This document shows, in pieces, positions 13,719-36,647 of a stretch of DNA of 64,000 nucleotides (positions are counted from its first letter, which is position 1; every line of letters begins with the position of its first letter). This DNA comes from Acholeplasmataceae bacterium (GTDB lineage Bacteria; Bacillota_I; Bacilli_A; Acholeplasmatales; Acholeplasmataceae). A model generated the notes under the pieces. It worked only from the letters and a program-made list of their open reading frames with translations, made no database searches and was not told the DNA's origin. The position numbers were made by a program, and so were the translations under genes. The stretch is taken from positions 1,686,089 through 1,750,088 of the forward strand of contig OY763415.1 of NCBI GenBank assembly GCA_963667565.1, read 5' to 3'.

Positions 13719-16700
13719 ATGAAAAATTATAAGATTTGTCCAAAATGCTATAGAATACACGATGGCGATGATATTAAATGTAAATTTAAAGATTGTGAAT
13801 ATTCTTTAGAAAATGTGCAATTTGCTACACAAAATGAATTAGTTGAGAATAAAAAGCAAAAAATAATTAATAAATATATCGAAGAAATTGATGATGTAAT
13901 AGCGGTAAGTAAGTCTTCATCTAATATTATTGATGTTTATAGAGGTAGGATTCTATTAGAATTACTCCAAAATGCCCATGATGCAGCAGTAAATCATAGA
14001 GATAAAGACTCATATGTCAAAATAACATTTTTCGATGGAGTTTTAGAGTTTTATAATAGTGGTACACCATTTCACTATGACGGGGTTAGAAGTTTGTTCA
14101 CTCCACATTTTTCGATTAGAGAATTTGAAGATGAAGATACGGATGATCATGAGAAAAAGAACGAAGACTATATTGGTCATTTTGGTCTTGGATTTAGATC
14201 TATTTTGAATTGGGGAAATGAAATAAGTATTATCAGTACATCGGGGCTTTCTATTCATTATTCGCCAAAAAATGTGCTTGATATGCAAAAACGGGTTAAA
14301 GAAAATCAAGATCAGTATAATAGGATAATTGGATTTGCAGATGGTAGCAAAAGTACACTATTTGAAAAATATCCAATACCTCTTTTGACTGCTCCATCAA
14401 TTATTGATGATAAAATTAAAGATGATAAATATGATACAATGATAAGAATTGTTTGTTTTGAAGATAAATATGATGAAATATATGAAGAATTATCAAAGTT
14501 TAGTAGTCAAGATGTTGCATTCTTAAATATATTCAAAGAAATTATTATTCAAACTGAACATATAAATAAAACCATAAATCGGAAAAAACTTAATGTCTCT
14601 GAAATCATTATTAATGATGAGAAAATTCAAAAAAGTGTTATTTCATTTCTCACGGGTAGCATTCTTGATACTTATACTAGATTTAAAATATCAGGTTATA
14701 ATAATGATTTAGGTATGATATATAATTGTGCAATTGCTTTTTCAAATCATGACTTGGAAAAAAATAATATAAGCATCTATTTTAAAACAAAACATGAAAA
14801 CAAATTCCCCTTTTTAGTACATGGGTCATTTGATCTTAGGGAAGATCGCGAATATATAAAAGAAACGCCTAATACCTTATATGTTTTTGAAAAATTATCA
14901 AAACTTATAGTTGATGTAATTCTAAACGAAAAACTAAACCTTGATCATGTAAATTATGAGGCATTAGAGATGCTTGTTTGTGATACTGATTTCTTTCCGT
15001 TTAGTCAAACCTATAGGTTTTATATGGATTATATAAAGAAACAAAAATGTTTTCCAACCGTAAATAATAAGTATAGATTGAATGATTCTTCTAATGTATT
15101 AGTCTTCCCATTTAATGAACCTAGATTATCTTTAATTTTAAAAGGCAACAAATTTGATGATTTACTAATCTTTACAGAGAACGAAAAAATAATCAGTTTT
15201 TTAAAGTTACTTGATGTTGAATTTTATACACAAAATCATTTAGCGGATTTAATTGATGAAACTATATTAAACTATACATTAGAAGATAAAACTAAACTTA
15301 TTTACTATTTTATTAAGATATTTAATAAAACTAGTGATAACTACCCGAAGCTTATTGTAGATACAAATAATCAAAGCGTTCTAGACTCTAATGGTCTATT
15401 TAATCTTCCAACCACACAGGAATTAAGAGAACTACCTGAGTTTATTCAATTAAAATTTATTAATGAAAAAATGTGGAATGATTTGCAATCAAATGAATGT
15501 TTTAATATAACTAGTGTTAATAAAGTTAGAGGTTTATTAGAAAGAATTGAACCTTTTGGCGTAGATGAATATAGTTTCACGAAGATTTTTCCTCTGATAA
15601 AAAAAGAGTTTGAAAGTCAAACTATTACTAATGATCAAAAAAAGGTCGTCATCAAGTGGTTACAAAAATATCTAATTAACAACATTGAAAATTTTTCATC
15701 TGTTTTTCCAATTTTGCAAAAAGAAATGTCTGATTCAAATTATGGGGAAGTTTTTATAAAAGAAAATCATCAATGGCTTTTTGATTTATTTTCTAATCAT
15801 CAAGAGGTTAAAGAATATCGCGAATCTAAAAATATAATTGTTTTATGTAAAGTAAAGAAGAAAATAGTATTATCAGATGCTATAAACACTTATTTTCCAG
15901 ATTATTATGATAATAAAGTGGGTTATGCCTTATTAAAATACGCTGATGTTGACTTTTTGGCTGGCACTTCATATTATGGTTTTAAAAACACTGATTTGAA
16001 TCTAATTAAAGAATATTTTATATGGTTGGGTGTTAATATATTTCCGAAAAAAATAATTATAGATATAAAAAATACAGATTTCCTTGAATATGGAAAGTAT
16101 TGCTTTGGTTCAGATTACGACACCTTATTGAAAGATAAATTTAGTATAAGCAATTTAGGAAGAGTTGAAACAATTCAAAATATTGATACTATTTTAACCA
16201 AATCGAACTTTAATGAAATTATGTATTGGTTGTTATTGATGGATGGTAAAGAAAAATCATTTTTATCAAATGAAAATGAAACTTATCCAGATTCATTTCT
16301 TAATTATTACTACGCATATAGTCAAAATTATCAAAGAAAAGATACGTTAAGAAAGACATATAAACAGCTTAAAAATTATATTAGATATAAATTCTATACC
16401 GCAAAATGGTTAGAAGTAGAAGACTCAAACATTAAAATTGCTCCCAAATCAGCCACATTTTCCACATATGGTTTGGCTCCAATGTTTTATAAACCTAAAA
16501 TTGATTATAGACATTTCAGTAAAATAAACCTTAGCTGGACAGAAGAAAAAATTAATACAATTTTGGTAGATATTGGAGTTAATTCACGGATTGGTTTATT
16601 GGATGAAAGAAGAAAGTATAAGTTGTTAAGTAATTTGGAAGAATTAGATAAAACTTGTAGGTTTACTAGATCAATTTATAATGAAGTAATTAAAGATAAC

Positions 16701-18698
16701 GAAACCAGTGTAGAAGAACTTAATAAAAGTCTTTTTAATACTGAAGAATACATAGATTTTATAAATAATGGAAAAATTGCTGTGATTAAAAATTATAGGA
16801 AACAATATGTTCCTGTAAAAGAATCATATTATGCAGATAATCGAGAACTTTGCGAAGGTATCACTAAAAATATAAACATATTGGATTTGGAATTGAGAAA
16901 AGGTGTTGATCAAGTGACAACGATACTTGGAACACAAAAACTTCAAGACTTTGATATTAAATTTGTGAATGAACCCAAATGGAGTGAGTTAAATCAAGAG
17001 TTTAAAGAGAAATATTTAGAGCTACTCCCCTTTATTATTGTAAAAAGAAATCAAAAAATTAAGAATATAAAACCCGAGATTGCGAAATTAAAAAATTGCG
17101 AAGTTAAATTAATTTTAAATGAAACAATTAGTTATAAAGTGGATAACGAAACAATTAAATACCAGTTAGAGGACTTTGAATACATCTATTTTGATAAGTT
17201 AAATAAAGGATATATTGTTGCACCAACTAGATTTAAAACGTGCGAAGATTTGTTTAATAATCGAGAGTTTGCTGATTCGTTAGCAGAACTCATTACTTTA
17301 ATTTTAGGCGTATATGATGGGAAAGAAAGTTATAGAGAATTTATAGGCTTATCAAACGAGGATAGAGAAAGAACAGTAATAAAAGACTATAATTTGAATG
17401 GAATAGAAATCCTTCAAACAATACGAATAGAATTTAATATCACTATGAGTAGAAAAACTATATTTTGGAATACAATCAAGCAGTTAATTGGAAAAAACAA
17501 ATTTGCAGGTATTTCTAAACAATATATTGATAATGATAATATTAATTATGAAGATTATTCAGATATAAATAATATTCAACTGTTTATGCAGCTGTTTCAA
17601 CAAATTAAATTGGATTTCGATCAATTTAATTCAAATTGCAAATATCAAATTAGATCTGAAAAATACTGGCAAGAGAACTATGAAATAATTAAAAATAAAT
17701 ATAAAGATAATTATAAATCTTATCTATATTTGCAAAGAATATTTAATATAAAATCAATGGAAGATGTACAAAAATTTTATAAAGATGTACAAGATTTTCA
17801 ATTTAGTAGATTTTCAACTTATAATTCTCCTTTAAAATCACCAATATCTGAGTATTTATATAATACATTTAAAGTTAACTTAAAAACATTAGAAAAGGAA
17901 GAAGTGCTTGATTTTGACACTATTATTCAAACCAATATAAATCAATATAATAATGACCATCCAGAAAAGTATCATAAAATTGTTAAGATAAAAGCTAAAG
18001 AAGAGATTATGCGTTTTGCACTATTAAATAAAATTGATTTACTAGAAATAAATGAAAATAGCAATGAAGATAAGTCAAAAAATGCAAAAGCCATATTAAT
18101 CAATTATAATGAACTTGATGATGAAGCTGATAGAGCGTCCAAAGCACACCAAATCAATGCCGATAACATTCAATCAATGATTAGTAAAGATAATAAGTCT
18201 AATAAAGATAATGAGAATCATTTACCGAAATCTAACAGTTCTGATGCAGATGATATTAACCAAAGAAAACTGGAAAATGGTTATTTGGCAGAAAGGTTTG
18301 TTTATAATCAATTAGTAAATGAAATGGAAGATTATAATGTAAAATGGATATCTAAATACTCTTATTATGGTATAGGTAATAAAGAATATAACGATAATGC
18401 TCACTATGATATAGAATACTATGACAAAAATGGTAAACATCATTATATCGAAGTTAAATCATCAAGTGATGCGAATATTAGAATTGAAATATCGAAAGAA
18501 GAGGTTGAGTTTGGACTTTCACATAAACAAGAATATGACATATATTATATTCGTATAAAAGAAAGAAAAATTCAAAGTGATCCGAGTAAATTTGAAAAGA
18601 TTTTTGTCTTTGATAAACTACAAAATTTCTTAGAAAACGATAAGTTTTCTGTTGATTACAAAACATTCATACTTAAGGGAAAGATTAAGAAAAATTAA
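13719..18698 (+). CDS. Sacsin-like GHKL ATPase with C-terminal DUF3883 (NO VEIN) nuclease-like domain
   Basis: ELLQNAHDA, YNSGTPF, IGHFGLGFRS; C-terminal GYLAE...HYDI...YIEVKSS; N-terminal CPKC..C..C. Confidence 0.8.
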   Translation: MKNYKICPKCYRIHDGDDIKCKFKDCEYSLENVQFATQNELVENKKQKIINKYIEEIDDVIAVSKSSSNIIDVYRGRILLELLQNAHDAAVNHRDKDSYVKITFFDGVLEFYNSGTPFHYDGVRSLFTPHFSIREFEDEDTDDHEKKNEDYIGHFGLGFRSILNWGNEISIISTSGLSIHYSPKNVLDMQKRVKENQDQYNRIIGFADGSKSTLFEKYPIPLLTAPSIIDDKIKDDKYDTMIRIVCFEDKYDEIYEELSKFSSQDVAFLNIFKEIIIQTEHINKTINRKKLNVSEIIINDEKIQKSVISFLTGSILDTYTRFKISGYNNDLGMIYNCAIAFSNHDLEKNNISIYFKTKHENKFPFLVHGSFDLREDREYIKETPNTLYVFEKLSKLIVDVILNEKLNLDHVNYEALEMLVCDTDFFPFSQTYRFYMDYIKKQKCFPTVNNKYRLNDSSNVLVFPFNEPRLSLILKGNKFDDLLIFTENEKIISFLKLLDVEFYTQNHLADLIDETILNYTLEDKTKLIYYFIKIFNKTSDNYPKLIVDTNNQSVLDSNGLFNLPTTQELRELPEFIQLKFINEKMWNDLQSNECFNITSVNKVRGLLERIEPFGVDEYSFTKIFPLIKKEFESQTITNDQKKVVIKWLQKYLINNIENFSSVFPILQKEMSDSNYGEVFIKENHQWLFDLFSNHQEVKEYRESKNIIVLCKVKKKIVLSDAINTYFPDYYDNKVGYALLKYADVDFLAGTSYYGFKNTDLNLIKEYFIWLGVNIFPKKIIIDIKNTDFLEYGKYCFGSDYDTLLKDKFSISNLGRVETIQNIDTILTKSNFNEIMYWLLLMDGKEKSFLSNENETYPDSFLNYYYAYSQNYQRKDTLRKTYKQLKNYIRYKFYTAKWLEVEDSNIKIAPKSATFSTYGLAPMFYKPKIDYRHFSKINLSWTEEKINTILVDIGVNSRIGLLDERRKYKLLSNLEELDKTCRFTRSIYNEVIKDNETSVEELNKSLFNTEEYIDFINNGKIAVIKNYRKQYVPVKESYYADNRELCEGITKNINILDLELRKGVDQVTTILGTQKLQDFDIKFVNEPKWSELNQEFKEKYLELLPFIIVKRNQKIKNIKPEIAKLKNCEVKLILNETISYKVDNETIKYQLEDFEYIYFDKLNKGYIVAPTRFKTCEDLFNNREFADSLAELITLILGVYDGKESYREFIGLSNEDRERTVIKDYNLNGIEILQTIRIEFNITMSRKTIFWNTIKQLIGKNKFAGISKQYIDNDNINYEDYSDINNIQLFMQLFQQIKLDFDQFNSNCKYQIRSEKYWQENYEIIKNKYKDNYKSYLYLQRIFNIKSMEDVQKFYKDVQDFQFSRFSTYNSPLKSPISEYLYNTFKVNLKTLEKEEVLDFDTIIQTNINQYNNDHPEKYHKIVKIKAKEEIMRFALLNKIDLLEINENSNEDKSKNAKAILINYNELDDEADRASKAHQINADNIQSMISKDNKSNKDNENHLPKSNSSDADDINQRKLENGYLAERFVYNQLVNEMEDYNVKWISKYSYYGIGNKEYNDNAHYDIEYYDKNGKHHYIEVKSSSDANIRIEISKEEVEFGLSHKQEYDIYYIRIKERKIQSDPSKFEKIFVFDKLQNFLENDKFSVDYKTFILKGKIKKN

Positions 18699-25404: not shown

Positions 25405-25578
25405 GTGAAAAACATATTAGTATCTGCAGTTTTAATCACCATATTAGGAATTGTAGTCACAGGGTCTATAGATGTTACAAGTTTAATTGATTTTATAGGA
25501 AATATTATACATTTATTAGGAATAATTATAAGTTTTATAATTCAAGTAATTATTAAAATTATTGAAGCTTTATTGTAA
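25405..25578 (+). CDS. 57-aa hydrophobic peptide not in the ORF track
   Basis: SD aaggagg + GTG; MKNILVSAVLITILGIVVTGSIDVTSLIDFIGNIIHLLGIIISFIIQVIIKIIEALL. Confidence 0.7.
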   Translation: MKNILVSAVLITILGIVVTGSIDVTSLIDFIGNIIHLLGIIISFIIQVIIKIIEALL

Positions 25579-25916
25579 CAATTTCAGGAGACAATTATGA
25601 GATATAAAAAGAAAAAATAGCCAGTATTTTCATGATGAGAAGCTGGTTTTTTTTATGCCATTAAATCAAAAATTAGTATTTATATTTAGGTTGAACAGTT
25701 TATTAATAAATAAAAGTTGCCATTAAAAACTGCAGCAATCTTTTGACATTGCATCGGTTATATCCCCTTACTTGATTTCACAAGATTACCAGTAACTACA
25801 CTTTCTTTTTTTACTTTTAACCATATATATTTTAAATATGTTCACTAAGAGATTCCATAAAACTACTGATTTATGAAAAAACCTTATCTCAAGAAAATAA
25901 ATGTGATACAATATAT

Positions 25917-26020
25917 TTGCGGAACGTAAATAAAATGGGTGTATACCTTCGTTCCGCAAACTATGGGTATACATCCACCTTAAAAATAAGTGAACAAAAT
26001 CTGTTTGCTTTTTTATTTTT
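25917..26020 (+). ncRNA. Predicted ~100-nt small RNA
   Basis: TG-n-TACAAT at 25904-25912; stems 25916-26/25950-60 and 25937-47/25966-76; terminator aagtgaaca/tgtttgctt + T run at 25988-26020. Confidence 0.55.
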
Positions 26021-26036
26021 TAGTGCTATAATGAAG

Positions 26037-26273
26037 TTGCGGAACGAAGGCGGTCATCGTTTTTATATAAGACCGAACACCCAAAAAGGTTATTAATTCT
26101 AGAAAGATAATCTGAGTAGGAAATATACCTATAGGCACACATTGAATCATGTGTAAGAAACGACAGTATAAGAAAATTCATTACTATGAGTATTTTTTCG
26201 TTTTTACATATTTGCCTAATTCACCAAATACTTATAATAATATTTTCTTCTGATCATCCAAAAGGAGAGAAAA
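26037..26273 (+). promoter_or_regulatory. Long structured 5' leader (or ncRNA) of the viperin operon
   Basis: Promoter ttgctt-N16-tataat with extended TG (26005-26032); stems 26051-55/26071-75, 26117-20/26128-31, 26132-37/26213-18 and 26149-63/26198-211. Confidence 0.55.
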
Positions 26274-26741
26274 ATGAAATATTATTTAGTTACATGTAAG
26301 TTTGGACACGTGGGCAGAGATAAGTATCTCCCATTAGACATTCCAATTATTGCAGATTCAATTAAAGAAGCTAGTTTTTATGCAAAAAATAAAGGTGGCG
26401 TAAAAAAAGATCATAAGGATTGGTGTTTAAGAGGACCTATAGAGGTTAGTAAAGAAATATTTGATAATGCTTTGCTTTCTTTTAAAAATGATATCTATTT
26501 TGAAAAGCATAGTAGACAACGGTTATATTTATTTGAAGATAGACTGATTGATGAAAAAAATTACACGAGAATTAACAACAGCAAAACAAACACTAAAATA
26601 TATAAGAAAAAACGAAGTAAAAGAGTTGTTGAATTTAGAAGAAGGAAACAATCAGAAATCATCAAAACATTGATGAATGAACAGGTATATGCTTTGCAAC
26701 ATTTTAGAAATTCTAATGTATTAATTGGGAGGGAAAATTGA
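26274..26741 (+). CDS. Basic hypothetical protein, possibly RNA-binding
   Basis: SD aaggag; YLVTCKFGHVG...ADSIKEA N-domain; Arg/Lys-rich tail; TGATG overlap with the viperin gene. Confidence 0.75.
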   Translation: MKYYLVTCKFGHVGRDKYLPLDIPIIADSIKEASFYAKNKGGVKKDHKDWCLRGPIEVSKEIFDNALLSFKNDIYFEKHSRQRLYLFEDRLIDEKNYTRINNSKTNTKIYKKKRSKRVVEFRRRKQSEIIKTLMNEQVYALQHFRNSNVLIGREN

Positions 26742-27589
26742 TGAATACATATCATGTGATTAATCTTCATCTAACTGAGGCTTGTAATTACAATTGTGTC
26801 CACTGCTTTGCAAAATTTAATGTTAGCAATGAGTTAGGAATCAGTGAATGGAAAGATGTGGTTGATCGTATCAAATTATATTTTGATGAACAGCATATCG
26901 TTTATGGAAGAATTAATCTTGCAGGAGGTGAGCCACTTCTTGTAACATACATTGATGAATTGATTGAATATATTAATTCACTTAACATAAAAGTATCCAT
27001 TATTACAAATGCTTCTAGATTAACTAGACAAATACTTGATAATTGGACAGGAAAAGTGGAAATGCTAGGGATTAGTATTGATTCACTTAATGATGATACT
27101 AATATTGCGATTGGAAGACATTTTAGAAATCAAACACTTAAATATGATTCACTAATTGATTTGATGAATTATGCTAAACAAAAAGGTATGCTTATTAAAG
27201 TGAATACTGTTGTATCAAAATTAAATTTGAAAGAAGATATTAAACATTTATATGAAGACGTAGCTTTCGATAGAATTAAAGTGTTACAAATGCGTATTAA
27301 TCAAAACTGTAATGAATCTGCTAAACATTTATCAATTACAAACTGTGAATTTAAAGAGTATCTTCAAAGGCTTAATATGAATAATATCATTATAGAACAT
27401 GAAAACGAGATTGATTCAGCATATATATTTATTGATCCAAAAGGGAATCTAGTATCAAATACAGATCATTTACATCAAAAAGTTGGATCTATATTTGATG
27501 AAAATTTAGGTGAACTAATTTTTAATGCGCATATTAATAATGAAAATTATAATAAAAGATATTTAAAGGGGAACATAAATGAATCTTAA
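26741..27589 (+). CDS. Prokaryotic viperin-like radical SAM enzyme (pVip)
   Basis: INLHLTEACNYNCVHCF (N.H + CxxxCxxC), INLAGGEP, SIITNAS, GISIDS, KVNTVV, RIKVLQ, YIFIDPKG. Confidence 0.85.
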   Translation: MNTYHVINLHLTEACNYNCVHCFAKFNVSNELGISEWKDVVDRIKLYFDEQHIVYGRINLAGGEPLLVTYIDELIEYINSLNIKVSIITNASRLTRQILDNWTGKVEMLGISIDSLNDDTNIAIGRHFRNQTLKYDSLIDLMNYAKQKGMLIKVNTVVSKLNLKEDIKHLYEDVAFDRIKVLQMRINQNCNESAKHLSITNCEFKEYLQRLNMNNIIIEHENEIDSAYIFIDPKGNLVSNTDHLHQKVGSIFDENLGELIFNAHINNENYNKRYLKGNINES

Positions 27590-30152
27590 ATTAAAAATAG
27601 CGTATAGCGAAAATAACGAATTTCAAAATTTGCAGGATGCTTCAAACCAATTGATGACATTAACTAATAATAATTCGATTAAATGCAAAGTCTCAACAAA
27701 AAGATTAGAGATTGAAAGAGATAGGAAAGATGAAAGAGATATAAGAAGTATTAAAAGAGTAGAAATGACGCTCAAATTACCTGATGGGTTTTTAATTTTA
27801 AGAGGGCACCTTGGATGCTCATTTAGAAGACCATTTGGTGGAGAATTCTATATGTTGGACTATAAAGTTATTCCTAATGGTGTGTTTGAAGATTTGGGTG
27901 GTGTTGAAATAGATATTCAATTTGATAACATGTTTCCGACAGAAATTACTCCCATGTTCAACGCTTTAAATGAAATTGTTAATGACAATAAATTTTTATT
28001 TAATATAGGGCAATTTGATGAATTTATGGAAGTCTTTAAATTCTATAAAAAAATATCGGATGAAATCAATAATAGTGCAACCTTTGAAATTATTGATTCA
28101 TCCCAACCATATTACTTTATATCAGTAGATACTAAAGAACTTTATGATGAGAATGGATTAGTATTAATGATATATACAGGAATTGAAAATTTTAATGATA
28201 GCGAAGATATTATCAAAGGTTATAAAGTTCCTGAATATGTATATGATAAATTTAATAATGAATTAAAAGAAAAGACTTATAAACTATGCGATATTGTCAT
28301 AAAAAACGAAGAACAAGCAATTCGTAAAATACGTAGAATGTCAGACAATTTATATGTAAGCAATATGCTTGTTGTCAATGAGCAGCAAGCAAAAAAATTA
28401 CATGAAGTTGAATTAATGAATATCCTAGTTAAAAAAGATATGATTATTCTAAGCGTTTTTGAAGATACATATATAGACGAAAGATATTTAAATCTATATG
28501 ACATGGGACAAAAAATTAAGATAGAGTCAATTGAAGACTCACTTAAGCTTATTAGTCAAGGCGATACAGGAGCAGCAATGCCAAAAATCAAGTACCTCAT
28601 AGGTGATGACGATATGCCAAGTGAATCAAAAAAAACAGAAAAGGTCCAAAAGTTTATTTCAGATGAATTAAGAAAAGCTCCAATCAAATCTGAATATACT
28701 AAAAACTTAAATGAGTCACAAACACTTGCCTTTTTAAAAGCAGTTGATGGATCACCTGTAACTTTAATTAAAGGCCCTCCAGGAACTGGAAAAACGCACG
28801 TTATTAATGCAATTACGCAATATATAACTAAAGAATTAAACGAAAAAGTTGTAATTTCATCTCAAACACATGTTGCTATTGACAACGTATTAGACAAATT
28901 GATGGAAAATCACGACTTAATTATTCCCAACAGAATTACCAACAGAAGAAATAAATATAGTATGGATGAAATTGATAAAACGTTGTATAAAACTTGGGGA
29001 ATGAAATTGACTAATCATTTAAGTCAAACAAAAAATAAGAAACTCGCATATGCCATTATTAAGGATTTGAAAAATTTCAATGGATTAAATGAAATTCAAT
29101 ACTCAAAAAACATGAAAGAAGAATTTTCAGTCATTGGGGCAACTACTACAACAGCTGCTATTGGTGGTAATAAAGGAAGAACATTGCTTAAAGATTATCA
29201 ATGGCTAATCATTGATGAAGTATCAAAATCTCCAATCACAGAAGTCTTAAGATATTTACCGTATGTAGATAAAATAATTCTAGTAGGAGATGACTATCAA
29301 TTATCTCCACTTCTTGAATTTAATAAAGAAGATGTTAAGCATCTACCTTCTTACGATGAAGAAATGTTTGATCGTTTACAAACGATATATGAGCAATCTG
29401 TTTTTTCTAAAACAATCAAAAAAGCCGAAAAAGCAGGAAGACTGATTTTACTTAATGAAAATTATAGATCTCTAAAACCAGTTCTTAATCTATATAATGT
29501 GTTTTATGATGGTGCATTACATAATATGAGAGAACAAGTTAATCCAGAAATTATACAATTTAACGATAAAGCGATTTTAAGTAATGATAGTCATGTTTTC
29601 TTTGTAGAAGCACTAGGTGGTAGTGAACAAGATGACAAGAAAACACATTCACGTTATAACATTCAGGAAGCTGTTGCAACAGCAAGAATTTTAGAAGATA
29701 TACTAGAAAATGTTATTAATCCAAAATCTGTAACAGCTGCAGCTATTTTCCCATATGCAGCTCAAATCCAATACTTTACCAAAGAGTACAAAGAATTGAT
29801 TAACAAGGCAAAAATAAACTTGAAAAGTTTTGAAATTGATACTGTAGATGCTTTTCAAGGAAGAGAGACAGATATTGTGTTAGTCAATACAGTAATTACT
29901 AGATTTGAAAAAAGGAATTTTTTAAGAGATTTTAGACGAATTAATGTATCAATGTCAAGAGCAAAAGATAAACTTATTGTTTTTGGTTCAAGAAATTTAG
30001 TGAAACTTGAAATGGATACACCAGAAGGTGGAACCAGACAATACTTCAATGAGATTATTAGTAATATAAAACAAAATGGAAAGCAAATTATAATTAATCA
30101 AAAGGGGGATGTAGTTAATAATGAAAGTAACAGTAAATTTAAATTTGCCTAA
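27579..30152 (+). CDS. SF1 (UPF1/DNA2-like, AAA_11/AAA_12) helicase with long unknown N-terminal region
   Basis: LNESQ, GPPGTGKT, HVAIDN, IIDEVS, VGDDYQL, ENYRS, TVDAFQGRE, RRINVSMSRAK. Confidence 0.9.
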   Translation: MNLKLKIAYSENNEFQNLQDASNQLMTLTNNNSIKCKVSTKRLEIERDRKDERDIRSIKRVEMTLKLPDGFLILRGHLGCSFRRPFGGEFYMLDYKVIPNGVFEDLGGVEIDIQFDNMFPTEITPMFNALNEIVNDNKFLFNIGQFDEFMEVFKFYKKISDEINNSATFEIIDSSQPYYFISVDTKELYDENGLVLMIYTGIENFNDSEDIIKGYKVPEYVYDKFNNELKEKTYKLCDIVIKNEEQAIRKIRRMSDNLYVSNMLVVNEQQAKKLHEVELMNILVKKDMIILSVFEDTYIDERYLNLYDMGQKIKIESIEDSLKLISQGDTGAAMPKIKYLIGDDDMPSESKKTEKVQKFISDELRKAPIKSEYTKNLNESQTLAFLKAVDGSPVTLIKGPPGTGKTHVINAITQYITKELNEKVVISSQTHVAIDNVLDKLMENHDLIIPNRITNRRNKYSMDEIDKTLYKTWGMKLTNHLSQTKNKKLAYAIIKDLKNFNGLNEIQYSKNMKEEFSVIGATTTTAAIGGNKGRTLLKDYQWLIIDEVSKSPITEVLRYLPYVDKIILVGDDYQLSPLLEFNKEDVKHLPSYDEEMFDRLQTIYEQSVFSKTIKKAEKAGRLILLNENYRSLKPVLNLYNVFYDGALHNMREQVNPEIIQFNDKAILSNDSHVFFVEALGGSEQDDKKTHSRYNIQEAVATARILEDILENVINPKSVTAAAIFPYAAQIQYFTKEYKELINKAKINLKSFEIDTVDAFQGRETDIVLVNTVITRFEKRNFLRDFRRINVSMSRAKDKLIVFGSRNLVKLEMDTPEGGTRQYFNEIISNIKQNGKQIIINQKGDVVNNESNSKFKFA

Positions 30153-31557
30153 AATGTTTAATTCATTTGAGGTAAGATATCACACATTTGAAAAAGTATC
30201 ATATGATAAATACTTGATAGCATCTGTTGTAAAAAACAGTGAGTCGAAAAATGAAGCATTACAATTTATTGATGATCTTACGGGGAAAGGTAGTTTAAAT
30301 AATCATTTCAAAAAAATATATGAAGAGATAACATATTTACCCGAAGAAGAATTAATGAAAGTTTTAAAATACTCAGAATATCCAGTACAAAGAATAGATA
30401 AATATAAATACATATATATTCCGTTATTAGATGTTTCTATTTTTAACCACAAAGTTATTCAAGGAAATATTGCAAATGATGAGATGTTTACTAGATTGTT
30501 AGTTAATAAAAATGGTACTTATATTGAATCAATATACCATCAATCAGACCCAGTCACAAATAAGGATATATATGAGGTTTTACTAGAAGAAGAATATATC
30601 AAAATATTAATTGAAGATGTTTATTGTGAAATAAACGATAATGATTTTCAAAGAATTGTATATAAAGAAAGTATGGACTTAAGTCTATATAATGGTGAAA
30701 CTTATACAAATCTTAAAAACAGCGGGTGGTTTCAATTAACAAATTCAACGTTAAATAATATCTTAAACGCACAAGATTATTATTATGAAAATGGAAATCA
30801 TTTTGGTATATATAATAATTATGTGAGAGAGTCTAAAATCGGATATAGTTGGGGACTTTACTGGATCAATGAAAGCACATTTTACTATGATAGCCCTAAA
30901 AATAATGAGATTTGTGAAAAAGTAGCTCATGTATTGTTAGAATCTGGTAGAATTAATGAGTTTAAGACCAAATCAATGATTAATATCATTAATAACACAA
31001 ATAGAGATTTACAACAAAGACTAATTAATTATATCCTTCAAAGAAAAAACTCTAAAGAACTAGCACTAATAGCGTTTATTTTAATTGATAAAGGATATGA
31101 GAAAGGCTGGGATTTAGAAGTTACTAACACGTTGTACCGATTTAAAGAAAGTGATAAACATTTAGTTGCTTTATACAAAGTTAATGCTTATATGAATTAC
31201 ACTATTGAAGAGATATTAAAAATTTATAAGTATAACAAAAAAATCCTAAACGATACCGATTTGAAGAAAGTTCATGAATATGAGAACAGTATACTTCAAA
31301 TACGAGACAGTATTAAAATCAAAATTGGCGATATTATGTCTTCCACCACAAGAGAAGATATTAAAAGTATGAAATTAAATGAAAATAATATTAAATTAAA
31401 AAAAATGATTAACGAAAAAATTGCACATAACAAAAAAGATATCCAAAAGATGGATTTGGAACAATTAAAGCAATATGCTGAAACAGTGGATCAAATGCAT
31501 AAATTATATCTTAAAGTAAATCATGAATTACAAAATTCAAAAGAGAATGAAAATTAA
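30121..31557 (+). CDS. Hypothetical protein coupled to the helicase gene
   Basis: 478-aa ORF overlapping the helicase 3' end; SD aggggg; coiled-coil-like C-terminus. Confidence 0.75.
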   Translation: MKVTVNLNLPKMFNSFEVRYHTFEKVSYDKYLIASVVKNSESKNEALQFIDDLTGKGSLNNHFKKIYEEITYLPEEELMKVLKYSEYPVQRIDKYKYIYIPLLDVSIFNHKVIQGNIANDEMFTRLLVNKNGTYIESIYHQSDPVTNKDIYEVLLEEEYIKILIEDVYCEINDNDFQRIVYKESMDLSLYNGETYTNLKNSGWFQLTNSTLNNILNAQDYYYENGNHFGIYNNYVRESKIGYSWGLYWINESTFYYDSPKNNEICEKVAHVLLESGRINEFKTKSMINIINNTNRDLQQRLINYILQRKNSKELALIAFILIDKGYEKGWDLEVTNTLYRFKESDKHLVALYKVNAYMNYTIEEILKIYKYNKKILNDTDLKKVHEYENSILQIRDSIKIKIGDIMSSTTREDIKSMKLNENNIKLKKMINEKIAHNKKDIQKMDLEQLKQYAETVDQMHKLYLKVNHELQNSKENEN

Positions 31558-33291: not shown

Positions 33292-33327
33292 AAGATGTTC
33301 ATATCCTCGTATATGAACATCTTTTTT
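33292..33327. terminator. Bidirectional terminator between the ABC-F and resolvase genes
   Basis: 13-bp perfect stem aagatgttcatat/atatgaacatctt. Confidence 0.8.
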
Positions 33328-33928
33328 ATAGAGTGAAAGAATCCGCGTTTTTATACTTATAAAATGTGCTTTTACACATTTTAAGTTTCTTTAAAGCTAA
33401 GGATAAAGATAACTCGTTGTGATCATATTTATCCAAAATCTGATTAAAATTTTCAGGCAAGATATACTTGGGTCTTCCAAGATGCTTGCCTTTTTCTTTT
33501 GCAATTCTAATACCCTCTGCTTGTCTTTGCTTTATATTTTGTCTTTCATTTTCAGCAACAAAACTTAAAACTTGTAAAACAATATCACTAATAAACCTTC
33601 CAACTAAATTTTCTGGTTGAACGCGTGTATCTAAAAGGGGCATATCAAGAACTAAAATATCAGCATTGATATGTTTAGTGATATGCCCCCATTCTTCAAT
33701 AATCATTTCGTAATTACGACCTAACCTGTCAATACTTTTAATAATTAGTAAGTCTTTAGATTTTAGTTTTGATATTAACTTTTGATAGTTTTCTCTATTA
33801 AAATCTTTTCCACTTTGTTTGTCAATATAAATATTTTTTCTTTTAATGTCAAGTTTTTCAATTTCATCTAGTTGACGATCAATAGATTGAGTCACACTTG
33901 ATACTCTAATATACGCATATGTTGTCAT
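33326..33928 (-). CDS. Serine recombinase (resolvase/invertase)
   Basis: YAYIRVSS, DKQSGK, SIDRLGR, C-terminal HTH. Confidence 0.93.
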   Translation of the reverse strand: MTTYAYIRVSSVTQSIDRQLDEIEKLDIKRKNIYIDKQSGKDFNRENYQKLISKLKSKDLLIIKSIDRLGRNYEMIIEEWGHITKHINADILVLDMPLLDTRVQPENLVGRFISDIVLQVLSFVAENERQNIKQRQAEGIRIAKEKGKHLGRPKYILPENFNQILDKYDHNELSLSLALKKLKMCKSTFYKYKNADSFTL

Positions 33929-34021
33929 ATGTTCCTCCTGCGATAGATGTATTCAAATGTGATTTTATCATATAGTTCAGAAAAGTAGAGAATATATATA
34001 TAGATATATAAATAAAAAAAT

Positions 34022-34180
34022 ACTTCAAGTTCCATAAAGGTACACTTTTAAGGAATATCGGTTTTTAAAGATAAAGACTATATTTTAGTTAAATTGTTGA
34101 TATTTATTGATCAAATCTCTTAAAAATGATACGATCTATATATAAAACTTCAAGTTGATAAAGGTGTACCTTTAAGGAAT
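34022..34180. repeat. Two related palindromic ~35-bp sites (34022-34056 and 34147-34180), probable res subsites
   Basis: acttcaagttccataaaggtacacttttaaggaat vs acttcaagttgataaaggtgtacctttaaggaat. Confidence 0.65.
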
Positions 34181-34205
34181 GTTTTTATTAACAGAAAGAG
34201 GCAAC

Positions 34206-35039
34206 ATGCTTACACCGGTTATAAAATGGGTTGGAGGGAAAAGACAATTACTTGATGAGATCAAAAAACGCATGCCTAAACAGTACAATAGATATTTTGA
34301 ACCATTTGTTGGTGGCGGAGCATTGTTTTTAGAACTTTCCCCAAAAGAAGCGCATATTAACGATATTAATCATGATTTATATGCAATTTATAAATCTTTA
34401 CAGGATGAAGAACTATTCAAAGATCTATTATTAAGATTAGATCGGCACCAAAAAAATCATTCAGAAGAATATTATTATAAAGTTAGAGAACAAGATAGAA
34501 AAGAAAAATATGAACATACATCATTAAGTGAAAAAGCAGCTAGAGCTATTTACTTAAATAAAGCAGGATATAACGGATTATATCGTGTGAATCAAAGAGG
34601 ATACTTTAATGTGCCATCAGGTCATTACACAAAAGTGAATCTATATGATGAAATAAATATAAACAGTGTTCATGAATACATGAAGCAAAATAAAATATTG
34701 ATCACAAATAACTCTTATGAAAAAACGGTTGAAAATGCACAACAAGAAGATTTCATATATTTTGATCCACCATATGATAAATTGGAAAATAAAGCTTCAT
34801 TTACAGCATATTCAAAAAATGATTTTAATAGAGATGATCAAATAAAATTATTTAATACATTTAAAGAATTGTCTGATAAAGGCATTTATGTAATGTTAAG
34901 CAATCATAACACGGAATTTATTAGAGACTTATACAAAGATTTTAATATTCATGTTGTGTCAGCAACCCGCATGGTGAACTCTAATGCCCAAAAAAGAGGC
35001 CCTATTGAAGAAGTGATTATTACTAATTATGAGAACTAA
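34206..35039 (+). CDS. dpnM: Dam/DpnM-type GATC adenine methyltransferase
   Basis: KWVGGK, EPFVGGG, NGLYRVN, FDPPY. Confidence 0.9.
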   Translation: MLTPVIKWVGGKRQLLDEIKKRMPKQYNRYFEPFVGGGALFLELSPKEAHINDINHDLYAIYKSLQDEELFKDLLLRLDRHQKNHSEEYYYKVREQDRKEKYEHTSLSEKAARAIYLNKAGYNGLYRVNQRGYFNVPSGHYTKVNLYDEININSVHEYMKQNKILITNNSYEKTVENAQQEDFIYFDPPYDKLENKASFTAYSKNDFNRDDQIKLFNTFKELSDKGIYVMLSNHNTEFIRDLYKDFNIHVVSATRMVNSNAQKRGPIEEVIITNYEN

Positions 35040-35799
35040 ATACTATCAAGATTTAGATTTTACATTGTTATTAGGTGATGTGAATGAAACTCTAAAATCT
35101 ATTAGAAAACAAAGTATTGATATGATCTTTGCTGATCCCCCATATTTTTTATCTAATGATGGTATTACATGTCAATCTGGACAAATGGTATCTGTTAATA
35201 AGGCTTCTTGGGATCAAACAAATATGACAATTCAGGATAAACTTAAATTTAATAGAAAATGGATTAAAAGTTGTAAACGTGTATTAAAAGACACAGGTAC
35301 GATATTTATATCAGGAACACTTCATAATATCTATATTGTTGGTGTCGCATTAGAACTTGAAGGATTTCAAATCATTAACAATATTACATGGCAAAAGAAA
35401 AATCCTCCACCCCATCTTGCAAGAAAAGCTTTTACACACTCAACAGAAACCATTTTATGGGCTAGAAAGAAAAGTCAAAAATACTATTTTAATTATGATT
35501 TAATGAAATCAATGAACGAAAATAAACAAATGAAAGATGTATGGCAATATGCTATTACTAAGCAAAGCGAGAAGATATGTGGAAAGCACCCAACACAAAA
35601 ACCATTAGATTTGTTAAAAAGAATAGTGCTTGCTTCAACAAAAGAAAATGATTTGGTATTAGACCCATTTAATGGTAGCGGAACGACTGGTATTGCATCA
35701 ACTCTATTAAATAGGAAATATATAGGTATAGATATTGAACAAAAATATTTAGATGTGTCAATTTGTAGATATAAAGGGATAAAGGGGGAACAAAAATGA
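35029..35799 (+). CDS. dpnA: DpnA-type beta-class adenine methyltransferase
   Basis: FADPPYFLSNDG, HPTQKP, LDPFNGSGTT. Confidence 0.9.
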   Translation: MRTKYYQDLDFTLLLGDVNETLKSIRKQSIDMIFADPPYFLSNDGITCQSGQMVSVNKASWDQTNMTIQDKLKFNRKWIKSCKRVLKDTGTIFISGTLHNIYIVGVALELEGFQIINNITWQKKNPPPHLARKAFTHSTETILWARKKSQKYYFNYDLMKSMNENKQMKDVWQYAITKQSEKICGKHPTQKPLDLLKRIVLASTKENDLVLDPFNGSGTTGIASTLLNRKYIGIDIEQKYLDVSICRYKGIKGEQK

Positions 35800-36647
35800 T
35801 TAAAAGATCTTTTGAAGAAATGTTAAGCACACTAAAATCAAGCATTACACCTTATGATTTTTTTGTTGATTTTAATAAAGTATTTAAGAATGTTAAAGAA
35901 TTAGAGATATTATTAAATAGTATGAATTATTTGTTAGGTAAAGAAGATTTTGATCAAGCTTTCAAAGATCTATTTGAACAAAATTCAAATATTTATAAAG
36001 CAATTCCTATTCTATTAGCAACAAGAGAAAACAAAATTGAAATCTTAGAAGATAAATTAGTCATTTATGATTTTATGCATGCTCAATCTGTTGATGATTA
36101 TTTAATGTTCATTAAAAATACTAATCTCATAAAATTATTTACTAAAGATGGTGTAAAAAATTTAGTGGATTATGTTATAGGCGTTGAAGTAGGGCTTGAT
36201 ACGAATTCAAGAAAAAACAGAACAGGAACACTGATGGAAAATAAGGTGGAGAAGTTTATAAAAGATTCTGTAGTGTTCAAAGATTATATAACACAAGCAA
36301 GAATCATTGATATTAAAAACAATTTAGGCATCGATCTATCATATTTATTAGATGTTGATCAAAATAAAAGATTTGATTTTGCAGTTAAATCACAAGATAA
36401 ATTGTTTTTAATAGAAACGAATTACTATCGAACAAGTGGATCAAAACTAAATGAAACCGCAAGAAGCTATACTAAATTATCTGAAGATATTAGTAAAATA
36501 GATGATGTATATTTTATTTGGATAACAGATGGGCAGGGGTGGCTATCAACAAAAAATAATTTTGAAGAAGCATATGATCATATTGATTACCTATTTAATT
36601 TATATGATTTAGAACAAGGCATTTTGAAGGAATTATTTTTTAAGTAG
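35796..36647 (+). CDS. dpnB: DpnII-type restriction endonuclease
   Basis: GVEVGLDTNSRKNRTG, KRFDF, IETNYY..SGSKLNETARSY, WITDG. Confidence 0.9.
   Translation: MIKRSFEEMLSTLKSSITPYDFFVDFNKVFKNVKELEILLNSMNYLLGKEDFDQAFKDLFEQNSNIYKAIPILLATRENKIEILEDKLVIYDFMHAQSVDDYLMFIKNTNLIKLFTKDGVKNLVDYVIGVEVGLDTNSRKNRTGTLMENKVEKFIKDSVVFKDYITQARIIDIKNNLGIDLSYLLDVDQNKRFDFAVKSQDKLFLIETNYYRTSGSKLNETARSYTKLSEDISKIDDVYFIWITDGQGWLSTKNNFEEAYDHIDYLFNLYDLEQGILKELFFK

Follow-up and report, generated by a model that had tools for sequence, protein, structure and literature searches.

A predicted two-RNA switch, conserved and covarying, at the head of a helicase cassette in Mollicutes-like Bacilli

How anti-phage genes stay quiet and are then released is largely an open question, and a locus in the genome of an Acholeplasmataceae bacterium (1,750,088 bases, 31% G+C) raises it in a specific form. 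In the window (the whole stretch of 64,000 nucleotides analyzed here), a prokaryotic viperin gene lies in a short operon, and the initial annotation proposed that tandem promoters in front of it yield a small RNA complementary to the 5' end of the operon transcript. The questions are whether this pair of RNAs (RNA1, the small RNA, and RNA2, the leader of the mRNA; Table 1) is real, which genes it belongs to, and in which direction it would act.

Table 1. Positions of the RNA elements and cassette genes within the window
Feature	Position	Strand	Remarks
P1, extended -10 promoter of RNA1	25904..25912	+	sequence; -10-like hexamer in homologues
RNA1, putative small RNA of ~100 nt	25919..26020	+	fold z-score; covariation of the pseudoknot
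Layout of RNA1	a, 25919..25926; A-rich linker; b, 25937..25947; a', 25950..25957; b', 25966..25976; terminator-like hairpin
RNA1 segment x	25936..25942	+	pairs with leader 26077-26083
RNA1 segment y	25946..25957	+	pairs with the first 12 nt of RNA2 (26039-26050)
RNA1 segment z	25961..25971	+	pairs with leader 26124-26134; overlooked by the initial annotation
Terminator-like hairpin and T run of RNA1	25988..26020	+	overlaps the -35 region of P2; hairpins in homologues
P2, extended -10 promoter of the cassette mRNA	26024..26032	+	hexamer spacing in homologues
RNA2, structured 5' leader of 235 nt	26039..26273	+	conserved core; folds in homologues
Hairpin c	26051..26075	+	stem kept with unrelated sequences; loop CGTT (26058-26061) complements leader 26043-26046
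Near-invariant core: CC/GG closing pairs, 4x5 purine loop (26083-26086 opposite 26114-26118), hairpin d	26081..26120	+
Hairpin f, directly after the partner of z	26138..26153	+	predicted in most homologues; sequences differ
155-aa protein (P0001), passenger	26274..26741	+	no Pfam match; weak likeness to the fold of ribosomal protein LX/eL20 (best E 0.71)
Prokaryotic viperin, passenger	26738..27589	+	NF038283, 234.5 bits (cut-off 180); PADLOC pVip
SF1 helicase of 857 aa, fixed partner	27579..30152	+	AAA_11/AAA_12; MkoA-like core
478-aa protein, fixed partner of the helicase	30121..31557	+	no family match; pLDDT 91

Two extended -10 boxes (TG-a-TACAAT in P1, TG-c-TATAAT in P2) are each followed after 4 nt by the same decamer, TTGCGGAACG (at 25917 and 26037), exactly at the positions annotated. 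Counting both strands of the whole 1.75-Mb genome, this decamer is present three times, always at this locus (3/3), and a perfect 12-nt inverted pair (at least 8 G+C, 40–200 nt apart) is found once in the genome, again here. A contig from an independent study covers the region; it agrees with the window from 25484 to 26465 and shows 27 differences elsewhere in 7 kb, so the element is no assembly artefact. Rfam 15 gave no match in the window at the gathering threshold, the best sub-threshold rows (E 0.16–6.8) being at chance level.

The proposal of tandem promoters is borne out by 17 loci, in which -10-like hexamers stand at a fixed spacing. At P1, the spacing between the hexamer and the first G is 6 nt in 15/17 loci and 5 or 7 nt in two, while at P2 the best hexamer has the 6-nt spacing in all 17, three being weak matches; for 32 of the 34 starts the best hexamer ends 6 nt before the G that opens the shared sequence, a count in which the AT-rich background is uncontrolled. 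The bases preceding this G vary between loci and are unmatched by the complement, so the +1 positions are most likely G25919 (RNA1) and G26039 (RNA2), most likely shortening the shared start to 8 nt and the main helix to 12 bp. A consensus promoter scan, which needs a -35 match, lists neither P1 nor P2. The arrangement points to two back-to-back transcription units, RNA1 followed by the cassette mRNA.

RNA1 had also been assigned a terminator defining its length of about 100 nt. The part of this claim that stands is the hairpin with its T-rich run, kept between the units in homologues with unrelated sequences and energies of -6 to -22 kcal/mol (doubtful in L100, -2.9); what weakens it is that the copy in the window reaches only -8.4 kcal/mol and was not called by a consensus terminator scan. 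The weak hairpin here, the doubtful one in L100 and the fact that all pairings are possible inside one molecule would suit pairing in cis within one read-through transcript from P1, acting as an attenuation-like or processing switch with P2 as a secondary promoter. We regard this as very unlikely, given that a -10-like hexamer precedes the second copy at the exact spacing in 17/17 loci, that the complementarity of the main helix stops at the predicted +1 G, and that a hairpin and T run are kept between the units.

RNA1 folds better than expected by chance (z-score -4.4; none of 200 shuffles as good). The two interleaved 11-bp stems that had been noticed (25916-26/25950-60 and 25937-47/25966-76) are present, and the pseudoknot of a/a' and b/b' covaries: over 17 sequences 97.8% of cells are paired, both sides have changed in 6 of the 19 pairs and none of 500 shuffles reaches the score, while slid controls fall to 31–61% paired. 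The linker measures 9–12 nt across loci and keeps its A run. For these and the following structure counts, poor automatic alignments were replaced by other alignments and by anchor-based counts.

The conserved structure of the leader had gone unnoticed in the initial annotation. The leaders of homologues (180–270 nt) share one order, namely a conserved core of ~100 nt, a variable long hairpin and the Shine-Dalgarno (SD) sequence. The loop of hairpin c forms 4/4 pairs with leader bases 5-8 in 14 of the 17 loci and 3/4 in the remainder, with compensatory changes from C-G to T-A (L081) and to A-T (L099); in L099, the loop tracks the start of the leader and not that of RNA1. As the loop is too short for a classical pseudoknot in several loci, this contact may be an alternative pairing. 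The helices of the core are 98% paired, with 5/9 pairs changed on both sides and a U-A closing pair in L078, and the core loop reads AAAA opposite GAGUA in 16/17 loci and GAAA opposite AAGUA in one, a letter pattern which we take to be that of the sarcin-ricin motif. Judged by its letters, the loop would be of the sarcin-ricin (bulged-G) type: compared with a 5x4 loop having AGUA opposite GAA or AAA and closing helices, its size, letters and pairs agree in 17/17 loci, with A-A replacing the sheared A-G. The accessible part of one source describes A-A at this position as isosteric and ~6 kcal/mol less stable (PMC8450098). The loop is invariant beyond the needs of pairing. A conserved short reading frame in the leader was considered and rejected, since an ATG near hairpin f is found in the close clade, opens frames of 1–34 codons and is absent in distant loci (by eye).

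RNA1 and the leader are predicted to pair through three helices (y, x and z) and not through two, and across the 17 loci, which belong to three orders of Mollicutes-like Bacilli, the three vary in step. The two helices annotated before agree with the sequence, 25946-59 being the exact reverse complement of 26037-50 and GGGTGT (25937-42) the complement of ACACCC (26077-82). In helix y the first 11 leader positions pair in 17/17 loci (two G-U in all), through compensatory changes, several different start sequences and two matched one-base deletions; a' matches the start of RNA2 perfectly in every locus and RNA1's own start imperfectly in 5/17. Helix x is a run of 5–8 bp in 15/17 loci, with a mismatch in L102 and a score of 4 for L103 in the register used. 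Helix z, a run of 7–13 bp in 17/17 loci, changes from T-A to A-T (3 loci) or to C-G (1 locus) and from A-T to G-C (4 loci, as 3+1), and its change in L102 falls in a part of RNA1 without a partner inside RNA1. Predicted binding is better between cognate than between non-cognate partners (-23.1 vs. -16.8 kcal/mol for y, -16.2 vs. -11.7 kcal/mol for z), a preference equalled in none of 10000 permutations, a figure for loci some of which are related and hence not independent; inside a clade, a neighbour's partner often binds z equally well. Against shuffled leader pieces z is weaker in some loci (66/500 in L068, 26 in L021 and 20 in L002).

The idea that pairing could bridge a small hairpin also held, as cofolding places hairpin c between x and y in a three-way junction, 11–20 kcal/mol below the separate folds, in 6/6 loci tried; helix z crosses this junction and cannot be drawn by the cofolding program. 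The order on the leader (y', x', z') is a permutation of that on RNA1. A ligation splint was judged unlikely, with 3–5 unpaired bases between helices y and z. The bases of every intermolecular helix have other partners in the free folds, so the two states are mutually exclusive, and because both free folds covary too, both states, free and bound, appear to be under selection.

The check that had been suggested, conservation and covariation at homologous loci, thus supports a pseudoknotted small RNA of ~100 nt pairing with the 5' end of the downstream transcript, over 17 loci and for the free folds as well as the three intermolecular helices. The identical sequence at both starts and its inverted copy could also serve as DNA sites, be it operators or single-stranded DNA signals, which we hold to be extremely improbable: the repeat sequence changes freely while pairing is kept, G-U is tolerated, stems and loops covary, and no DNA-binding regulator is fixed in the cassette.

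The assignment of this element to a viperin operon did not survive comparison, since viperin stands behind the leader in only 4/17 loci and the leader sits directly on the helicase gene in 5/17; nor did a tie to the 155-aa gene, as genes of that family without the helicase lack the element. The space between leader and helicase is empty in 5 loci; it holds a 155-aa-family gene in 4, such a gene together with viperin in another 4, a ~470-aa gene in 3 and a 194-aa frame in 1. The helicase is always found behind the RNAs, while viperin and the 155-aa gene are there only in some loci, and on this gene order the helicase and the 478-aa protein can be taken as the fixed partners of the RNA pair, and the other two as passengers. 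Wherever the locus extends far enough, the 478-aa gene comes after the helicase. Loci L081, L099 and L101, from two orders, have a related gene of 461–481 aa between leader and helicase. In L100 the first gene behind the leader has a stop after three codons, and in L102 the first gene, of the 155-aa family, is apparently frameshifted; RNAs and helicase are intact in both.

Several searches bear on this linkage. A search with the 155-aa family found the element at 4 distinct loci of 21, and an RNA pattern search of metagenomes gave 5 matches, 2 of them new loci; the helicase is downstream in all loci from both searches, viperin only in some. Searches with the 478-aa protein (9/301 whole genomes) and with the helicase N-terminus (4/106, 3/158 and 6/351 genomes) led to 17 genomes with an assessable cassette, found irrespective of RNA (G080, with its 478-aa gene on a contig too short to judge, was left out). 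The RNA pair heads 14 of these 17 cassettes, or 17/20 including three loci found otherwise. The RNA1 model matched in 3/106 and 2/150 genomes, always at the cassette; these matches are in its training set and show only that no unlinked copy was found in the 256 genomes. The RNA models gave no match at loci of 155-aa-family genes lacking the helicase. In the three cassettes without RNAs (3/20) both RNAs are missing together, no leader match was found anywhere in their assemblies (G212 being 81% complete), and the helicases keep all motifs. These helicases fall in different parts of the tree (three changes are required, of which at least two are forced). Among the RNA-less loci, the helicase of L098 (4274-7015) carries ~70 extra N-terminal residues, and L097 has a second SF1-type helicase gene nearby (12269 onward). 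At 90% clustering the helicase N-terminus has 278 relatives, most of them with no surrounding DNA at hand, so the family extends beyond the 20 loci compared here. The helicases over which the base pairs covary are as distant as ~40% identity in their N-terminal part.

In viral contigs, the first RNA pattern gave 11 matches, of which one was real and, among the matches listed, 10 lay inside coding sequences of GC-rich contigs; later patterns gave 1 and 0 matches, and the helicase N-terminus search found the same single contig. In this 24-kb contig (L021) the cassette and both RNAs stand directly behind tail-like and holin-like genes (named by eye), and a prophage may carry the cassette there. 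A tRNA-like gene ~250 nt upstream of RNA1 in L081 (by eye) is a possible integration site.

The fixed genes encode a helicase of 830–913 aa and a protein of ~478 aa, while the first gene varies. In the window the helicase matches the MkoA profile with an E-value of 1.4e-71 over residues 365–835; MkoA and MkoC profiles match its core only, the N-terminal 340 aa being family-specific. The 478-aa protein has no match in Pfam, PADLOC or NCBIfam, fold searches with its model gave no clear match (BrxA, Z 6.4 over 66 residues, is within noise), and sequence searches of the atlas and the PDB gave none. We know of no toxic domain in the two fixed proteins. With 659 clusters at 50% identity the 155-aa family is large, and it has an invariant Gly-His and Lys; fold searches with its model returned weak LX/eL20 and RpoY rows, and a wide search was filled by its C-terminal helix. 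Members of the family were seen at loci L038-L040, L044, L049 and L050, and fusions to viperin (P0199), to TatD (P0137) and to a repeat-like N-terminal region of ~170 aa were observed; the domain is a candidate defence domain in its own right. Cassette proteins are on record in a culturable strain of Acholeplasma laidlawii (WP_264229683.1), and had no match among PLSDB plasmids or GenBank phages.

The MkoA-like core, the viperin and a Tiamat-like neighbour suggest a role of the cassette in defence. This neighbour, in the same defence-rich region, is a gene for 1659 aa (13719-18698, +; PADLOC TmtA profile, E 1.5e-205), and further on (33326-36647, +) lie what are presumably a resolvase-like gene, two methyltransferase-like genes and a DpnII-like nuclease gene. 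With Mokosh the cassette shares an Upf1-like (COG1112) helicase core in a defence neighbourhood; according to the accessible passages, Mokosh needs a PLD nuclease, separate or fused, and type I also a kinase domain, and these passages mention no RNA pair (10.1101/2022.05.11.491447). Neither fixed protein has a PLD or kinase profile match, and the cassette genes of the window have no reverse transcriptase profile match of the Retron/DRT kind. The literature searched holds no description of the RNA pair or the cassette, with supplementary candidate tables and subscription papers, which may list either, outside its scope; to that extent the helicase and its 478-aa partner form an undescribed cassette.

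As to the direction of control, we lean tentatively, at slightly less than an even chance, towards RNA1 repressing the cassette by unfolding an activating leader structure. The tandem promoters would make RNA1 and the cassette mRNA with the same first 8 bases. Free RNA1 would be caged in its pseudoknot, with its 5' end covering a' and b covering b', and the free leader would present the sarcin-ricin-like loop closed by CC/GG, its 5' bases being paired with loop c. The 5' end of the leader would displace RNA1's own 5' end (12 bp beating 8), the freed GGGUG would take the loop-closing CC to give the three-way junction with hairpin c, and the freed b' would capture the leader segment behind the loop, the leader thereby flipping between two exclusive folds. 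The free fold would be the active state, offering a site for a protein or a standby ribosome 150–200 nt upstream of the start codon, and RNA1 would hold the helicase cassette and its passengers low until it is lost or stripped off. Such a switch would probably set the timing with which a likely anti-virus cassette is expressed.

Repression by unfolding is preferred because only the free leader can form the invariant loop, whose closing CC are the bases that RNA1 takes; helices x and z, needless for a mere 5' cap, favour it as well, and joint loss of both RNAs beside an intact helicase is as expected of a control module. Against it stands that blocking the three leader segments, which in the window lie 140–235 nt before the start codon, shifts the predicted openness of the SD by at most 0.14 over 17 loci (with the wrong site taken in L068, and pseudoknots and standby sites unmodelled), and masking of the SD by the leader switch is not seen in these predictions. 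No U-tract terminator was seen in the leader either, and the step from refolding to expression is therefore missing. In addition, free RNA1 with its paired 5' end should be stable, a poor fit to a labile antitoxin, and because the first gene varies, control at a single start codon could affect the helicase only by way of coupling. In L003 only, the partner of z can pair with the SD region over ~11 bp, and RNA1 would be an activator there; this is not general.

Pairing from exactly +1 in 17/17 loci fits equally well with RNA1 as a general activator, either shielding the mRNA 5' end from RNase J decay or removing a leader fold bound by a repressor, a part that proteins of the cassette itself might play. 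In the genome, two RNase J genes and no Rho gene score over the cut-off, and there is one RNase III gene; stability control would cover the whole operon regardless of its first gene, and 5'-end protection is how RoxS-yflS and FasX-ska work, according to the accessible part of PMC5419742. A cap would need y only, leaving x, z and the dismantling of the loop unexplained unless a repressor is added, and with both neighbouring promoters looking constitutive, an activator would have little to signal. On balance we find this account rather unlikely.

The linkage to the helicase suggests a further role for the complex, which the helicase and its 478-aa partner would use as a substrate, sensor or cofactor. 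Binding would free a single-stranded 5' tail of RNA1 (~18 nt), and Upf1-like helicases move 5'-to-3'; the enzyme could load on this tail, strip RNA1 and thereby read or reset its own leader, its activity or its diversion by phage RNA setting the expression of the cassette and its passengers. It is in line with this that the RNAs are tied to the helicase pair and to no other gene, and that the linker length (9–12 nt), its A run and the junction geometry are all kept; linkage alone is expected of any dedicated leader, however, and the 3/20 cassettes that lack both RNAs and keep all helicase motifs indicate that the RNAs are not obligatory. We consider both this role and the stripping of RNA1 by the helicase unlikely.

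Repression by unfolding, the preferred reading, has its closest parallel in timPR, where, in the accessible parts of the sources, TimR inhibits timP by destabilizing a far-upstream pseudoknot (PMC11228461; PMC13000454). As in that system, with which tisB/IstR-1 (as far as covered by the accessible part of PMC7708055) can be grouped, a separate small RNA would bind far upstream of the start codon, in a long structured leader, and destroy a pseudoknot-type fold, and the leader conformations are exclusive. Unlike timPR, the genes of RNA1 and RNA2 are tandem, on one strand and with identical 5' ends, and RNA1, a pseudoknot in its own right, is caged by a copy of the sequence that it targets. The three helices follow a permuted order, no sequestration of the SD is predicted, and what is expressed is a helicase operon and not a small membrane toxin. 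With type I toxin-antitoxin systems the locus has RNA-mRNA base-pairing in common, as judged by covariation only, and no small toxic peptide was found, the fixed products being the two large proteins described above. RoxS-yflS and FasX-ska are, in the passages available, trans-acting and multi-target with one short helix (PMC5419742), compared with a dedicated neighbour and three helices covering the whole core here.

Type III toxin-antitoxin loci (ToxIN, CptIN and TenpIN) are likewise built of a promoter, a pseudoknot RNA, a terminator and then a defence gene, and differ from the present locus in that the latter has a second promoter and RNA-RNA pairing with the message; there is one pseudoknot unit and no tandem repeat array, and the four genes had no Pfam, PADLOC or NCBIfam match to a ribonuclease of the ToxN/CptN/TenpN families. 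The plasmid RNA ctRNA_pT181 (RF00242) is also an antisense RNA with stem-loops acting on a structured leader, but is made, unlike RNA1, from the opposite strand of the same DNA, and the Rfam match to it reached 21 bits (cut-off 56), on the other strand.

The RNA pair would thus work like an antisense-controlled leader, a known kind of system, but belongs to none of the families examined, and the comparison of loci points to a real, conserved and covarying two-RNA switch on a helicase cassette that picks up defence genes, viperin among them, as passengers. Little is known of small-RNA control in Mollicutes and related bacteria, and here natural covariation has mapped the base pairs of an RNA pair without an Rfam family. 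If it acts as predicted, it would be a natural strand-displacement switch, in which a small RNA with the same 5' start as its message is caged by a copy of its own target and, through three permuted helices, dismantles an invariant loop.
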